DNA of 64,000 nucleotides from Escherichia coli (GTDB lineage Bacteria; Pseudomonadota; Gammaproteobacteria; Enterobacterales; Enterobacteriaceae): NCBI RefSeq assembly GCF_024502345.1, contig NZ_JALDNN010000001.1, one strand, 5' to 3'. Shown piece by piece: positions 9,825 through 55,345 of the stretch. Made by a program: the position numbers and the translations under genes. The first letter of the stretch is position 1; each line of letters opens with the position of its first letter. The notes below the pieces were generated by a model that was not told where the DNA came from, searched no databases, and worked only from the letters and a program-made list of their open reading frames with translations.

Positions 9825-9860
9825 AGCAAAAAAGCGCCTTTAGGGCGCTTTTTTACATTG
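9825..9860 (-). terminator. Distal copy of the lysT-operon terminator
   Basis: Hairpin aaaaaagcgccctaaaggcgctttttt (minus-strand sense); second copy of a ~55 bp direct repeat. Confidence 0.6.
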
Positions 9861-9978
9861 GTGGGTCGTGCAGGATGACTCGCTTCGCTCGCCCTTCGGG
9901 CCGTCGCCGCGAGCGGCTCCGTTGTTTCGCTGCGCTCAACTCAAACCTGCTGCAGGTTCGAATCTTTGAGTATCGCAG

Positions 9979-10012
9979 ATAGCAAAAAAGCGCCTTTAGG
10001 GCGCTTTTTTAC
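9979..10012 (-). terminator. Rho-independent terminator immediately after lysQ
   Basis: Same GC hairpin plus T-tract directly 3' of the last tRNA. Confidence 0.75.
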
Positions 10013-10014
10013 AT

Positions 10015-10090
10015 TGGTGGGTCGTGCAGGATTCGAACCTGCGACCAATTGATTAAAAGTCAACTGCTCTACCAACTGAGCTAACGACCC
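10015..10090 (-). tRNA. lysQ: tRNA-Lys (anticodon UUU)
   Basis: 76 nt; reverse complement reads GGGTCGTTAGCTCAGTTGGTAGAGCAGTTGACTTTTAATCAATTGGTCGCAGGTTCGAATCCTGCACGACCCACCA. Confidence 0.95.
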
Positions 10091-10123
10091 CTTGCGGGAT
10101 TATGCTGCTTTAATCATTCAGGA

Positions 10124-10199
10124 TGGTGGGTCGTGCAGGATTCGAACCTGCGACCAATTGATTAAAAGTCAACTGCTCTACCAACTGAGCTAACGACCC
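10124..10199 (-). tRNA. lysZ: tRNA-Lys (UUU)
   Basis: Identical 76 nt tRNA-Lys copy. Confidence 0.95.
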
Positions 10200-10247
10200 A
10201 TACGGGTGTTACCTGAAAGATTTTTACTCGGGGCCAATCTTTAAGAT

Positions 10248-10323
10248 TGGTGGGTCGTGCAGGATTCGAACCTGCGACCAATTGATTAAAAGTCAACTGC
10301 TCTACCAACTGAGCTAACGACCC
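10248..10323 (-). tRNA. lysY: tRNA-Lys (UUU)
   Basis: Identical 76 nt tRNA-Lys copy. Confidence 0.95.
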
Positions 10324-10326
10324 GAG

Positions 10327-10402
10327 TGGTGGGTGATGACGGGATCGAACCGCCGACCCCCTCCTTGTAAGGGAGGTGCTCTCCCAGCTGAGCTAATCAC
10401 CC
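10327..10402 (-). tRNA. valZ: tRNA-Val (UAC)
   Basis: 76 nt; reverse complement reads GGGTGATTAGCTCAGCTGGGAGAGCACCTCCCTTACAAGGAGGGGGTCGGCGGTTCGATCCCGTCATCACCCACCA. Confidence 0.95.
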
Positions 10403-10453
10403 GATACTGCGCTAGATACTACAAACTACTTCCACCGAACCCACCGTAATTAG

Positions 10454-10529
10454 TGGTGGGTCGTGCAGGATTCGAACCTGCGACCAATTGATTAAAAGTC
10501 AACTGCTCTACCAACTGAGCTAACGACCC
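10454..10529 (-). tRNA. lysW: tRNA-Lys (UUU)
   Basis: Identical 76 nt tRNA-Lys copy. Confidence 0.95.
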
Positions 10530-10531
10530 GG

Positions 10532-10607
10532 TGGTGGGTGATGACGGGATCGAACCGCCGACCCCCTCCTTGTAAGGGAGGTGCTCTCCCAGCTGAGCTA
10601 ATCACCC
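10532..10607 (-). tRNA. valT: tRNA-Val (UAC)
   Basis: Identical 76 nt tRNA-Val copy. Confidence 0.95.
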
Positions 10608-10742
10608 GATACTACGCTGGATACTACAACTAACTATGTTAGTGGTGGGTCGTGCAGGATGACTCGACTTCGTCTCGCCCTTCGGGCCGTTGCTGATGCA
10701 ACGTTATCCTTCACGTTTTACTACCGCTTCCACCTTAGCGAT

Positions 10743-10818
10743 TGGTGGGTCGTGCAGGATTCGAACCTGCGACCAATTGATTAAAAGTCAACTGCTCTAC
10801 CAACTGAGCTAACGACCC
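10743..10818 (-). tRNA. lysT: tRNA-Lys (UUU)
   Basis: Identical 76 nt tRNA-Lys copy; first gene of the operon. Confidence 0.95.
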
Positions 10819-10982: not shown

Positions 10983-11774
10983 TTACATCGCGTTCAGACG
11001 TTTTTGTGCCTGTTTAGCGCCATCAGTACCAGGGTATTTACTGATAACCTGCTGGTATACGGCTTTCGCTTTTGCGGTGTCACCTTTGTCCTGCATGATG
11101 ACGCCGACTTTAAACATCGCATCTGCAGCCTTTGGTGACTTCGGATAGTTTTTCACTACCGAAGCAAAATAGTACGCCGCATCATCTTTTTTACCCTTGT
11201 TGTAGTTTAACTGACCCAGCCAATAATTGGCGTTTGGCAGGTAAGTTGAATCAGGGTAATTTTTGATGAAATTCTGAAATGCCACCATTGCGTCATCCTG
11301 GCGGGATTTATCCTGCACCAGCGCAATAGCTGCATTGTAATCCGTGTTTGCATCACCGCTTTTCACCGGCGCGCCAGCATTCGCAGTACCAGCATCAGCT
11401 GTCGGCGTCGTTGATGCCGCCGCACCGCTTTGATCGACGCTGGTTGATTGCGCCGCTGCACCACCGCTGCTGAGGCTATCGATCTGCAACAGGATCTGCT
11501 TTTGCCGCTCCACGACCTGATTCAGTTGATACTGATTTTCCTGAATCTGACCACGCAGGGAATCAATATCGGATTGATTATCAGAGAGTTGTTGCTGGAG
11601 TTGGGTTAAAAGCTGGCTGTGAGCATTAGAAATACGCTCAAGTTGAGTGACGCGGTCTTCGACCGAGCCTGAGCCGACACTACTGATTGGTGCCTGAGCA
11701 AAAGCGGCCCAGGGGGCCGCTATACCAACCAGTAACGACAGACTCAATAGTTGATGTCTGAAGTTACTGCTCAT
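10983..11774 (-). CDS. cpoB: Cell division coordinator CpoB (TPR protein, Tol-Pal associated)
   Basis: 263 aa; signal peptide, coiled-coil region, TPR repeats; downstream of pal. Confidence 0.9.
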   Translation of the reverse strand: MSSNFRHQLLSLSLLVGIAAPWAAFAQAPISSVGSGSVEDRVTQLERISNAHSQLLTQLQQQLSDNQSDIDSLRGQIQENQYQLNQVVERQKQILLQIDSLSSGGAAAQSTSVDQSGAAASTTPTADAGTANAGAPVKSGDANTDYNAAIALVQDKSRQDDAMVAFQNFIKNYPDSTYLPNANYWLGQLNYNKGKKDDAAYYFASVVKNYPKSPKAADAMFKVGVIMQDKGDTAKAKAVYQQVISKYPGTDGAKQAQKRLNAM

Positions 11775-11783
11775 GCAATTCTC

Positions 11784-12329
<546 letters not shown>

Positions 12330-12339
12330 TTAATTATTA

Positions 12340-13632
12340 TCACAGATACGGCGACCAGGCAGGGAATTTGACCTGTCCATCAGTTGCCGGAAGACGCGCT
12401 TTGAAACGCCCATCTGTAGAAACCAAATTCAGCACGGCTCCCATCCCCTGAGAAGAGCTGTAGATTACCATAGTGCCGTTAGGTGCCAGACTTGGCGTTT
12501 CATCCAGGAACGTGGACGACAGAACTTGTACGCCTCCCGTTGCCAGATCTTGTTTGGCAATGTGCTGCTGCCCACCATTGGAGCTGACCATTACCATAAA
12601 TTTACCGTCGCTGCTGACATCCGCATCCTGGTTCTGCGAACCTTCCCAGGTAATACGTTGTGGCGCACCGCCGTTGATATTCACTTTATAAACCTGGGGA
12701 CGACCGGCCTGGTCAGAAGTAAATGCCAGGTTCTGGCTGTCCGGGAACCAGGTCGGTTCGGTATTGTTACTGCGACCATCAGTCACCTGGCGGATCTGAC
12801 CAGAAGCCAAATCCATTACGTACAGGTTCAGGCTACCGGTTTTCGACAAGGCGAATGCCAGTTTGCTGCCGTCTGGCGAGAATGCAGGTGCACCGTTGTG
12901 ACGCGGGAATGAAGCCACCTGGCGTACAGCGCCATTTGCCAGCGTTTGGATGACCAGCGCGGAACGACCGCTTTCGAAGGTCACATAAGCCAGTTTAGAA
13001 CCGTCTGGTGACCACGCCGGAGACATCAGCGGCTGTGGTGAACGGTGAACGACAAACTGGTTGTAACCGTCATAGTCAGATACGCGCAGTTCATACGGGA
13101 ACTGACCGCCGTTGGTCTGAACAACGTAGGCAATACGGGTACGGAACGCACCTTTAATGCCGGTCAGTTTTTCAAACACTTCATCACTGGCGGTATGACC
13201 AGCATAACGCAGCCACTGCTTGTTCACTTTGTACGAGTTCTGAGCAAGTACAGTACCCGGTGCGCCGCCAGTGTCAACAAGTTGATAAGCAACATTGTAA
13301 GAACCATCCGGATTCGGAGTGACCTGACCGACAACTACAGCGTCAATGCCCAGTGCGGACCATGCAGCTGGTTGTACTTCCTGCGCACTACCCGGCTGCT
13401 GTGGCAGACGAGCGCGATCTAACGGATTAAATTTACCGCTGTTACGCAAGTCAGCAGCAACGATGCCGCCAATATCTTCAGGTGCTGCACCAGGACCCGC
13501 CCACTGGAAAGGAACAACGCCAATAGGACGACCGGAATCTACACCGCTGTCGATCACAATGCGGACTTCAGCATGCAGAACTGATGCCCACAGTATGAGA
13601 AAACCAAATGCTACTCGTAATGCCTGCTTCAT
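12340..13632 (-). CDS. tolB: Tol-Pal system periplasmic beta-propeller protein TolB
   Basis: 430 aa; signal peptide plus WD40-like repeats. Confidence 0.92.
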
Positions 13633-13764
13633 CATATCTCCCTTATCTGGACCGATGGCCCACGATAATTTAGCAGAATGTTAACAAACTAAAATACACA
13701 AAACTACCAGAACCCTGTGGCAACCGGTGCCTGATGTTGACCGTCGGAACAGTCACCATCACGA

Positions 13765-15030
13765 TTACGGTTTGAAGTCCAATGGCGCGTTTTTGAACAC
13801 TTCATATACTGCCTGGCTTGGTGGTTTCGGGATCTTCGCAAGTTTAGCTGCTGCCAACGCAGCCTGACAAAGTGCGGGATCGCCACCTTCAGGTTTGATA
13901 TCCAGTAACATACCATCGGGTGCCAGTTTTATGCGCAGCGTACAGGTTTTGCCTGCATAGGACGATGCGTCATAGAACTTACTTTCGATAGCAGATTTAA
14001 TCTGTCCGGCATAGTTATTGATATCGGCCCCTGATGCGCCATTGTTTTTAGTATTACCACTCCCGGCAGGCGAAGCATTGTTCCCTTTCGCCCCTCCCCC
14101 CGTTTTCGGTGCATTCTTACCAGAGCTTAGCTCACCGAAAATATCATCTGCCTCTGCGGCCGCTTTTGCTGCAGCGGCTTTTTCAGCTGCAGCTTTTGCC
14201 GCTGCCGCTTTTTTGTCTGCGGCGGCTTTTTCTGCCGCTGCTTTCTTATCAGCTGCTGCCTTTTCAGCAGCCGCTTTTTCTGCTGCTTTTTTGTCGGCTG
14301 CAGCTTTCTCTGCTGCCGCTTTCTTATCAGCTGCAGCCTTTTCAGCAGCCGCTTTCTTCTCAGCTTCTGCTTTGGCTTTTTCAGCAGCTTCAGTTGCCGC
14401 TTTCTTTCTTGCTTCAGCTGCAGCTGCTTCTGCCGCTTCCGCTTTCTTCTTCAGTGCCGCAGCGGCTGCCTCGGCTTTTTTCTGCGCTTCGGCTGCGGCT
14501 TTGGCGGCTTCTGCTTCTGCTTTTTTCTTTGCGTCTGCAGCCGCTTTCTTCGCTGCTTCTTCCGCAGCTTTAGCATCTGCTTCGGCCTTCGCTTTAGCAT
14601 CTGCCGCCGCTTTCGCTGCCGCCTCTTCAGCTTGCTTCTGCTTTAACTCGGCCTGTTTTGCGGCTTCTTCAGCCTGCTTTTTCTGCTCCTGAGCCGCTAA
14701 CCGCTCTTTCTCAAGTTGCTTCAGGCGTTCCTGTTCAGCCGCTTGTTTCTCACGCAGTTCTTCAGCAGCCTGCTGTTCCTTCATCTTGCGCTGTTCATCA
14801 GAACGCTTCGCGCTTGATTCCTGGCTTTGCATGCGTTTGTACTGCTCAACTACCGCACCTGAATCAACCATGACAGCGTCGATGGACGAACCACCGCCGC
14901 CTCCGGCTGAAGCTTCTATATTCTCATCGAACGAACTCCAGATCAGCGCCGCAAATAAGATGACATGCAGCACTGCTGAAATAATTATCGCCCGCTTGAG
15001 CTTGTCGTTTTGTTCGGTTGCCTTTGACAC
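13765..15030 (-). CDS. tolA: Tol-Pal system protein TolA
   Basis: 421 aa; N-terminal TM anchor, long Ala/Lys/Glu-rich helical domain II, C-terminal domain. Confidence 0.92.
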   Translation of the reverse strand: MSKATEQNDKLKRAIIISAVLHVILFAALIWSSFDENIEASAGGGGGSSIDAVMVDSGAVVEQYKRMQSQESSAKRSDEQRKMKEQQAAEELREKQAAEQERLKQLEKERLAAQEQKKQAEEAAKQAELKQKQAEEAAAKAAADAKAKAEADAKAAEEAAKKAAADAKKKAEAEAAKAAAEAQKKAEAAAAALKKKAEAAEAAAAEARKKAATEAAEKAKAEAEKKAAAEKAAADKKAAAEKAAADKKAAEKAAAEKAAADKKAAAEKAAADKKAAAAKAAAEKAAAAKAAAEADDIFGELSSGKNAPKTGGGAKGNNASPAGSGNTKNNGASGADINNYAGQIKSAIESKFYDASSYAGKTCTLRIKLAPDGMLLDIKPEGGDPALCQAALAAAKLAKIPKPPSQAVYEVFKNAPLDFKP

Positions 15031-15094: not shown

Positions 15095-15523
15095 TTAGAT
15101 AGGCTGCGTCATTAAACCAACCGATTTCACACCCGCACTATGTAACAAGTTCAGTGCTTTAATTATTTCATCGTAAGGCACATCTTTTGCGCCACCGATC
15201 AGAAAGACCGTTTTCGGGTTGGCCTTGAAACGGCTGGACACTTCCGCCACCACCTGCTCTGGTGGTAAACGCTCCAGGCGATCTTTCTCAACCACCACGG
15301 TGTACTGACCAATACCAGACACTTCAACAATCACTGGCGGATTATCGTTACTGCTCACCGCCTGTGATTCAGTAGCGTCTGGCAGATCGACCTCCACGCT
15401 CTGGGTGATGATGGGCGCTGTCGCCATAAAGATCAGCAACAGCACCAGCAGTACGTCCAGCAACGGTACAATGTTGATTTCGGACTTGAGATCGCGACGA
15501 CCTCGTCCACGCGCTCTGGCCAT
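15095..15523 (-). CDS. tolR: Tol-Pal system protein TolR
   Basis: 142 aa ExbD/TolR family. Confidence 0.92.
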   Translation of the reverse strand: MARARGRGRRDLKSEINIVPLLDVLLVLLLIFMATAPIITQSVEVDLPDATESQAVSSNDNPPVIVEVSGIGQYTVVVEKDRLERLPPEQVVAEVSSRFKANPKTVFLIGGAKDVPYDEIIKALNLLHSAGVKSVGLMTQPI

Positions 15524-15526
15524 GGC

Positions 15527-16620
<1,094 letters not shown>

Positions 16621-33329: not shown

Positions 33330-33525
33330 TGTCGGTCACCCGTAGGCCTGATAAGACGTGTAAGCGTCGCATCTGGCATCGCTTGTCGGATGCGGCGCGA
33401 GCGCCTTATCCGACCTACATCGGTGCTTCCCGTAGGCCTGATAAGACGCGTTAAGCGTCGCATCAGGCTTCAATTGCCGGAGAAGGCGATAATGTCTTAT
33501 CCGGTCTACAGTGCAGGTGAAACTT
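33330..33525. repeat. BIME/REP cluster in the sucB-sucC intergenic region
   Basis: Repeated gcctgataagacg...cgcatc palindromic units. Confidence 0.6.
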
Positions 33526-37739: not shown

Positions 37740-37865
37740 GTTACGCCTGATGCGCTGCGCTTATCAGGCCTACGGGTAATGACTTGTAGGCCGGATAAGG
37801 CGTTCACGCCGCATCCGGCACTGGTTGCCTGATGCGACGCTTGCGCGTCTTATCAGGCCTACGGT
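37740..37865. repeat. REP elements in the sdhB-sucA intergenic region
   Basis: gcctgatgcgctgcgcttatcaggcctac and repeated copies. Confidence 0.6.
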
Positions 37866-55209: not shown

Positions 55210-55345
55210 AGCACCGATGCCTGATGCGACGCTTGACGCGTCTTATCAGGCCTACGCATTTCCTGCAATTTATTGAATTTGCACAAATTTGTAGGCTGGA
55301 TAAGGCGTTCACGCCGCATCCGGCATCTGGGCTCGATTGCCTGAC
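55210..55345. repeat. REP elements between dtpD and phrB
   Basis: gcctgatgcgacgcttgacgcgtcttatcaggcctac and a second copy. Confidence 0.6.

Follow-up and report, generated by a model that had tools for sequence, protein, structure and literature searches.

The repetitive Ala/Lys/Glu-rich stalk of Escherichia coli TolA: an in-frame tandem array, its length variation and the reading frames opposite it

Introduction

The domain II coding region of tolA in Escherichia coli raises three linked questions: how far its Ala/Lys/Glu-rich sequence is repeated beyond what composition alone would give, where and by how much its length differs between strains, and why the opposite strand carries long open reading frames. 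We address these for a stretch of 64,000 nucleotides (here called the window; NCBI RefSeq assembly GCF_024502345.1, contig NZ_JALDNN010000001.1), in which a first-pass annotation, made from the letters of the DNA alone, had marked positions 14100-14720 as highly repetitive DNA encoding the long alpha-helical linker of TolA, as a likely site of length variation between strains, and as the origin, through its repetition, of spurious open reading frames on the other strand.

The tolA repeat tract and its length variation have been known since 2012. An intragenic tandem-repeat tract in E. coli tolA was reportedly the subject of work by Zhou, Vanoirbeek, Aertsen and Michiels in that year (Res Microbiol 163:316). 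Zhou, Michiels and Aertsen, also in 2012, described 13 imperfect repeats of 15 or 18 bp, with 8-16 copies among 234 isolates, of which 66% carried 13 (PMC3477136). In that study contraction occurred at a frequency of 6.9e-5, depended on RecA and was raised in a uvrD mutant, a mutS knock-out being without effect; deletion of five units was the predominant spontaneous event, and deletions sometimes reached degenerate units upstream of TR1 and never involved units 12 and 13 (PMC3477136). Alleles engineered to contain 2-39 units altered deoxycholate tolerance, survival at low pH combined with high salt, and plating of phage fd (PMC3477136).

Results

Identity of the gene

The open reading frame that contains the tract is tolA, an assignment on which curated protein models, annotation, gene order and PDB matches agree. 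Against the NCBIfam equivalog NF007065 its product reaches 554 bits, where the cut-off is 213, and against TIGR02794 it reaches 308 bits (cut-off 59.45); domain III is identified by Pfam PF06519 (TolA C-terminal domain) at residues 325-419, covering profile positions 1-96 of 96 (E = 2e-38). TolA chains of 421 aa in the PDB match with E = 2.6e-227, chain 9k49_H spanning residues 1-421, and the solved domain III structures 1tol, 1s62, 3qdp and 2x9a match likewise. The N-terminal transmembrane anchor, placed by AlphaFold2 in a helix at residues 4-34, reads AIIISAVLHVILFAALIWSSF and retains S18 and H22 of the SHLS motif, whose His22 is described as essential in the TolA anchor (PMC10666116). The gene order ybgC-tolQ-tolR-tolA-tolB is present in the window, all on the minus strand (Table 1), and in all fetched genomes the RefSeq annotation has tolA in the corresponding position, with tolR and tolB on either side.

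Table 1. Positions of the tolA repeat tract, its parts and the surrounding reading frames in the window
Feature	Coordinates	Strand	Description	Basis
ybgC ORF	16216..16620	minus		ORF list
tolQ ORF	15527..16219	minus		ORF list
tolR ORF	15095..15523	minus		ORF list
tolA CDS	13765..15030	minus	GTG start, 421 aa, 1266 nt	ORF list
tolB ORF	12340..13635	minus		ORF list
Region marked in the first-pass annotation	14100..14720	minus	TolA codons 104-311; most of domain II and first residues of Gly-rich linker	
Small tandem array	14553..14617	minus	24-nt unit DAKAKAEA, ~2.1 copies	TRF period 24
Degenerate upstream units	14359..14406	minus	codons 209-224; three units KKAATEAAE/KA/KAEAE	
Canonical array	14152..14358	minus	codons 225-293; 13 imperfect units of 15 or 18 nt	unit table, TRF
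78-nt higher-order repeat	14202..14360	minus	26 aa, five units, 2 copies, 88-89% identity	TRF score 255
Last three units	14152..14196	minus	codons 279-293	invariant columns, array architectures
Antisense ORF224	14018..14692	plus	224 aa, TTG start, product AAAFSAAAF..., low complexity	ORF list
Antisense ORF154	14109..14573	plus	154 aa, GTG start, Leu/Gln/Pro-rich	ORF list

Composition and repetition

Alanine (97), lysine (46) and glutamate (30) account for 83% of the 208 codons of positions 14100-14720, where GCA (37), AAA (30), GCT (24), GCG (21) and GAA (20) are the most frequent codons and the AT skew of the plus strand is -0.6 to -0.78. Repetition was judged against 1000 codon shuffles in which amino-acid composition, codon composition and frame were kept. 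Over codons 104-311 we count 29 pairs of repeated 12-mers, compared with 5.1 ± 3.9 in the shuffled genes, and 10 pairs of repeated 15-mers, compared with 0.5 ± 1.2; none of the 1000 shuffles reaches either figure. In a self-dot-plot, the check that the first-pass annotation had proposed, internal repeats are present and all 15 of the strongest diagonals fall at lags divisible by 3. The repetitive Ala/Lys/Glu tract that the annotation had read in tolA is accordingly real, although not over the whole of the range assigned to it.

Nearly all of the repeat signal comes from codons 213-302 (positions 14125-14394), the remainder of the range showing mainly compositional bias. Within these codons there are 91 pairs of identical peptide 6-mers (4.2 ± 4.4 when shuffled, with no shuffle in 1000 reaching 91) and nine pairs of DNA 15-mers (0.3 in codon shuffles), and Tandem Repeats Finder (TRF) reports periods of 15, 30, 33, 45 and 78 nt within 14153-14373, the best call being of 78 nt with 2.0 copies and 88% matches. 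The half on the side of the gene start (codons 104-212, positions 14395-14721) consists to 87% of A, K, E and D and is weakly repetitive: its four 12-mer pairs (shuffled 1.2 ± 1.8) are reached by 102 of the 1000 shuffles, and its nine peptide 6-mer pairs (shuffled 3.1 ± 3.3) by 51. The claim of repetition thus stands for 14125-14394 and holds only weakly for 14395-14721, which, the small 24-nt array aside, is mostly a matter of composition.

A candidate inverted repeat (I1, 27 nt, 74% complementary, with 221 nt between its arms) was set aside. It and nine terminator-like hairpins on the plus strand were judged to be by-products of GCAGCTGC-type palindromic strings of alanine codons that run on into the complement of AAA codons.

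Anatomy of the array

The units of the canonical array follow the consensus K(1-2)A(2-4)[E/D/A] and are five or six residues long. From codon 225 onwards, units 1-7 read KKAAAE, KAAAD, KKAAAE, KAAAD, KKAAE, KAAAE and KAAAD, and units 8-13, which end at codon 293, read KKAAAE, KAAAD, KKAAAA, KAAAE, KAAAA and KAAAE. The peptide repeat is much cleaner than the DNA repeat, since each of the 13 units is spelled with a different combination of synonymous codons. Higher-order periods of 33 nt and 78 nt are superimposed on the units; the diagonal at lag 78 in the dot-plot matches at 42 of 45 positions and extends over 76 nt at 89%, the longest homology in the array.

The two ends of the array differ in how they vary. 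The degenerate units on the upstream side are absent or replaced in four alleles (L007, L010, L013 and L014), among them O157:H7 alleles. At the other end, codons 281-293 (A281-E293) show no variation across an alignment of 15 sequences, and KAAAA/KAAAE, the pair of units that closes the array, occurs in all 21 sequences compared (the window and 20 fetched alleles). The last three units overlap the published CpoB/YbgF-binding stretch, TolA residues 280-313 (PMC8928145).

Length variation among strains

Of 5426 complete E. coli genomes, 5425 carry the gene. Lengths were read from two evenly spaced samples taken down the ranked matches (39 and 59 full-length rows), in a genome collection that is clinically biased as a source of allele frequencies. 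In 68 of these 98 rows (~69%) tolA is 1266 nt long, as in the window; the other 30 fall into 13 further lengths between 1170 and 1311 nt, and all 14 classes are divisible by 3. The commonest alternatives are 1311 nt (nine rows) and 1299 nt (seven); lengths of 1215, 1251 and 1290 nt were met twice each, and those of 1170, 1185, 1218, 1221, 1233, 1263, 1275 and 1296 nt once each. Relative to the window protein this range corresponds to -32 to +15 aa.

Comparison of the 20 fetched alleles places the indels in codons 209-282, with the exception of one of +24 nt and one of -6 nt further upstream, and nearly all of them add or remove complete units within the array. The length of the N-terminal 208 residues is constant in all but two of these alleles, and that of the C-terminal 128 residues in all 20. 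Length variation is therefore almost wholly confined to positions 14152-14406, ~250 nt in a range of 620 nt, so that the expectation of strain-to-strain variation held, in a much narrower segment. Fifteen distinct architectures occur among the 20 alleles, with the number of K-initiated units running from 7 (L005) to 17 (L014).

Insertions, in the clearest cases, duplicate a segment exactly and in tandem: 33 nt (39 nt of homology), 30 nt (38 nt) and 24 nt (35 nt). Where alleles have diverged little, deletions terminate in short direct repeats (5-12 nt), and the junctions of the more diverged alleles L006, L007, L010 and L014 have little or no flanking homology. Alleles of equal length need not be identical: among the 1299-nt alleles, L004, L016 and L018 duplicate KKAAAE/KAAAE and L017 contains KKAAAE/KAAAD three times, and the two 1290-nt alleles L011 and L015 have entirely different origins, so that alleles of the same length arose recurrently and independently. 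Four lengths (-48, +30, -33 and -45 nt) lie on flanks identical to those of K-12, as is expected if length changes faster than point substitutions accumulate.

The half of the range towards the gene start is not fully fixed in length, and variation there is rare. Allele L011 gains 24 nt at window position 14602, an exact third copy of the DAKAKAEA unit of the small tandem array; a three-copy query is matched at >=99% identity in 59 of 5424 genomes (~1%), and many of these come from poultry (chicken or turkey). Allele L015 lacks 6 nt (Ala-Ala) at 14422-14427. The 24-nt array at 14553-14617 may be a second, so far undescribed variable site in tolA.

Predicted structure of the stalk

Spacing of opposite charges at i,i+4 stabilises alanine-based helices. 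The window protein contains 43 opposite-charge pairs at this spacing, where shuffled sequences give 22.0 ± 3.9 (z = 5.4). The motif Lys1-2-Ala3-4-(Glu/Asp), published for TolA (PMC10666116) and credited there to Levengood et al. 1991, is found in it. AlphaFold2, run on the window protein with a shallow alignment of 15 near-identical alleles, predicts one unbroken helix at residues 61-283 (DSSP), with a pTM of 0.26 and a pLDDT of 47-60 over the repeat array. Motif and model agree with the annotation of the tract as the helical TolA linker. The public AlphaFold model depicts domain II as a helical hairpin of ~220 Å, and models based on SAXS also have a hairpin (PMC8928145); the hairpin was not reproduced in the present AlphaFold2 run, whose model lends weak support to helicity and to no particular tertiary arrangement.

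Open reading frames on the opposite strand

The three antisense frames contain stop-free runs of 171, 225 and 173 codons; the one with 171 has no start codon and is hence not among the listed reading frames. When codons are shuffled within the A/K/E-rich part, the longest antisense runs are 128 ± 30, 186 ± 62 and 83 ± 28 codons, and when synonymous codons are redrawn they are 188, 262 (± 68 for the ORF224 frame) and 125 codons. The long antisense frames are thus a by-product of Ala/Lys/Glu/Asp codon composition and not of repetition: GCN, AAR, GAR and GAY rarely give stops when read in reverse complement, which keeps the frames open, and repetition is not the cause, since codon-shuffled genes yield comparable runs. 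The first-pass annotation was right to regard the listed frames as long and spurious in appearance, and mistaken in attributing them to the repeats.

Discussion

We hold with very high confidence that the region is the domain II stalk of TolA, with an in-frame array of 13 units, length variation by whole units, and antisense reading frames driven by codon composition. The stalk brings the C-terminal domain across the periplasm to TolB-Pal at the outer membrane, on which the TolQR motor of the inner membrane acts through it; its C-terminal third is encoded by the array of imperfect 15- and 18-nt units, and the i,i+4 opposite charges should stabilise its helix. Because the units resemble one another in DNA sequence without being identical, they could pair out of register in replication slippage or in misaligned homologous recombination, so that whole units are added or removed, which would lengthen or shorten the helix while keeping the frame; junction homologies and the literature both point to such a mechanism. 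The five-unit deletion published as predominant may likewise be explained by the 78-nt repeat, which spans five units. At 1.5 Å per helical residue, the observed range would amount to about -48 to +22 Å for an extended helix, and to roughly half of that for a hairpin.

Other explanations are far less probable. Low-complexity coding sequence rich in Ala, Lys and Glu might by itself make apparent repeats where no true repeat exists, and for 14395-14721, where some shuffles reach the observed counts, this is nearly true; as an account of the tract it is very improbable, given the excess of peptide 6-mers and DNA 15-mers in 14125-14394, the 78-nt period found there by TRF and the fact that natural indels are whole units. 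It is scarcely credible, in turn, that the length differences are assembly or sequencing artefacts. Repeats are a classic setting for assembly collapse, and some of the records are labelled 'whole genome shotgun' chromosomes, but the array, at ~250 nt, is shorter than the span of a read pair and each unit has its own synonymous spelling; each of the 13 alternative lengths keeps the reading frame; alleles recur in many independent genomes, the 1311-nt length having been sampled in nine rows and the +24 allele being present in 59 genomes; and sizing by PCR of the 234 isolates gave a similar picture, 13 units again being the majority state (PMC3477136).

Extremely unlikely, too, is the proposal that an antisense frame, most plausibly 14018..14692, is a real overlapping gene for whose sake the repeat is partly kept, ORF224 being translated into an Ala/Phe/Ser-rich hydrophobic polypeptide. 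Its stop-free run extends over 225 codons, and of 32 natural SNPs 29 leave its amino acids unchanged, yet a run of this size is not unusual beside those of shuffled or redrawn genes, and the SNP test is uninformative, the same SNPs being synonymous in tolA. The third codon positions of ORF224 coincide with those of tolA, so that its apparent conservation is mechanical and the frame is invisible to substitution-based tests. In ORF154, 22 of 23 natural SNPs are nonsynonymous. Besides its TTG start and low-complexity AAAFS product, ORF224 contains no in-frame ATG; a Pfam search matched neither it nor ORF154 to a family; no promoter-like site was found upstream of it on the plus strand; the same strand has nine terminator-like hairpins within the frame, counted against a shuffle control that does not preserve local composition; and in the fetched genomes RefSeq annotates only tolA here and no antisense gene. 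The long antisense frames are better read as consequences of tolA codon composition.

The tract described in 2012 and the present one agree closely. About two-thirds of strains have 13 units in both (66% there, ~69% here), some deletions extend into the degenerate upstream units in both, and in both the last two units are untouched; the unit range is 7-17 here against 8-16, and nothing essential differs (PMC3477136). The separate 24-nt array, varying in ~1% of genomes, is seen here beside that tract. Our additions are accordingly small: this variable array, the slightly wider unit range, the independent origin of equal-length alleles, and the caveat of wobble coincidence.

Several known systems help to place the array. 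Alanine-based helical peptides of the type (E/K)AAA(K/E), engineered rigid linkers A(EAAAK)nA and the single-alpha-helix domains found in nature combine an alanine backbone with opposite charges at i,i+4. The TolA tract resembles them in its enrichment of such pairs and in its predicted helicity; its K-first unit order and mixture of five- and six-residue units are specific to TolA, and domain II, unlike an isolated single helix, has been described as a helical hairpin (PMC8928145). The domain II of TonB is likewise a repetitive, charged, periplasm-spanning spacer of a homologous force transducer, but it is built of Glu-Pro and Lys-Pro dipeptides in a polyproline-II helix and has no sequence similarity to that of TolA. 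Its role is one of reach and rigidity and not of specific contacts, and it partly replaces domain II of TolA, the helical TolA domain stabilising the outer membrane better than the TonB graft (PMC10666116). Outer-membrane stabilisation needs a structured domain II, for which the native helical one is best (PMC10666116).

In its copy changes the array is comparable to contingency loci in envelope proteins, with which it shares gain and loss of whole units, a preserved frame, recurrent equal lengths and a measurable contraction frequency, the published value for tolA being 6.9e-5 (PMC3477136). It differs from short-tract slippage switches in its diverged units of 15-18 nt and in its dependence on RecA and independence of mutS (PMC3477136), and it tunes length, whereas short homopolymer or oligonucleotide tracts switch expression on and off.

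The check confirmed the initial reading in the main, narrowed the variable part to ~250 nt and corrected the cause of the antisense reading frames. For annotation, it illustrates that long open reading frames opposite Ala/Lys/Glu-rich genes should not become gene calls, and that in an antisense frame with coincident wobble positions apparent purifying selection is no evidence of coding. The tract is a possible marker for strain typing, although equal lengths can arise independently. For the organism, stalk length affects stabilisation of the outer membrane by Tol-Pal, and the tolA tract is thereby a small natural tuning knob of envelope robustness, towards bile salts, acid and salt, and filamentous phage.

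Sequence and genomic background of tolA

A base-by-base check of tolA identified a synonymous A in codon 342 (GGA; window position 14005, T on the + strand), at which K-12 and 14 other alleles carry G, and no match above 99.9% to the tolA of the window was found among 5426 complete E. coli genomes; the A at this position reflects either a SNP private to this sequence or a discrepancy arising from sequencing. The same search left a single complete genome with no tolA match, and 2 of the 5429 matches lay in records labelled as plasmids. Despite this K-12-like tolA, the window is not K-12: the top genome-wide match to positions 1-25000 reaches just 98.2-98.4% identity over 25 kb, only 106 genomes cover at least 80% of this interval, and a gene cluster with glmL (methylaspartate mutase accessory), missing from most strains, lies within it. 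The strain of origin is absent from the set of complete genomes.

Repeat-number variation and further features

Besides its main array, tolA contains a second, small tandem array (see table), and an allele from another E. coli genome (L011, 1290 nt) carries an exact third copy of its 24-nt unit. A three-copy query was matched at 99% or above in 59 of 5424 complete genomes, many of them from chicken, turkey or APEC strains. The promoter-like site within tolA precedes the start of tolB by approximately 200 nt and falls in a region from which an internal promoter for tolB-pal is reported. Amongst the RNA features, the RNA thermometer match is located downstream of pal, two RtT RNA matches accompany the tRNA cluster, and naRNA4 is REP-derived.

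Features located in the window
Feature	Position	Strand	Details
Second small tandem array	14553-14617		24-nt unit (DAKAKAEA), ~2.1 copies; tolA codons ~139-160
Promoter-like site	13841-13870	-	TTGTCA, 18-nt spacer, TAAACT; inside tolA 3' end
CpoB/ybgF intergenic RNA thermometer (RF02782)	11745-11883	-	Rfam, 140 bits vs gathering score 51
Seven clustered tRNA genes	9859-10818	-	5 tRNA-Lys UUU, 2 tRNA-Val UAC
naRNA4 (two copies) and ES036 sRNA	33345-33415, 37789-37859, 55248-55290	-, +, -	Rfam matches

The strand opposite tolA

Nine sites resembling intrinsic terminators, i.e. a GC-rich hairpin with a T-run, occur on the + strand at 14154-14515, antisense to the tolA repeats, compared with 2.6 ± 1.7 when the wider region is shuffled, a control in which local composition is not preserved. 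These nine sites probably arise as a side effect wherever a palindromic GCNGC string precedes the complement of AAA codons. The 224-codon antisense frame on this strand (14018-14692) has its third codon positions in common with those of tolA and, because these positions coincide, 29 out of the 32 natural SNPs leave the amino acid unchanged in either frame. Such sharing of wobble positions between the antisense frame and tolA constitutes a pitfall for gene calling that is based upon conservation.
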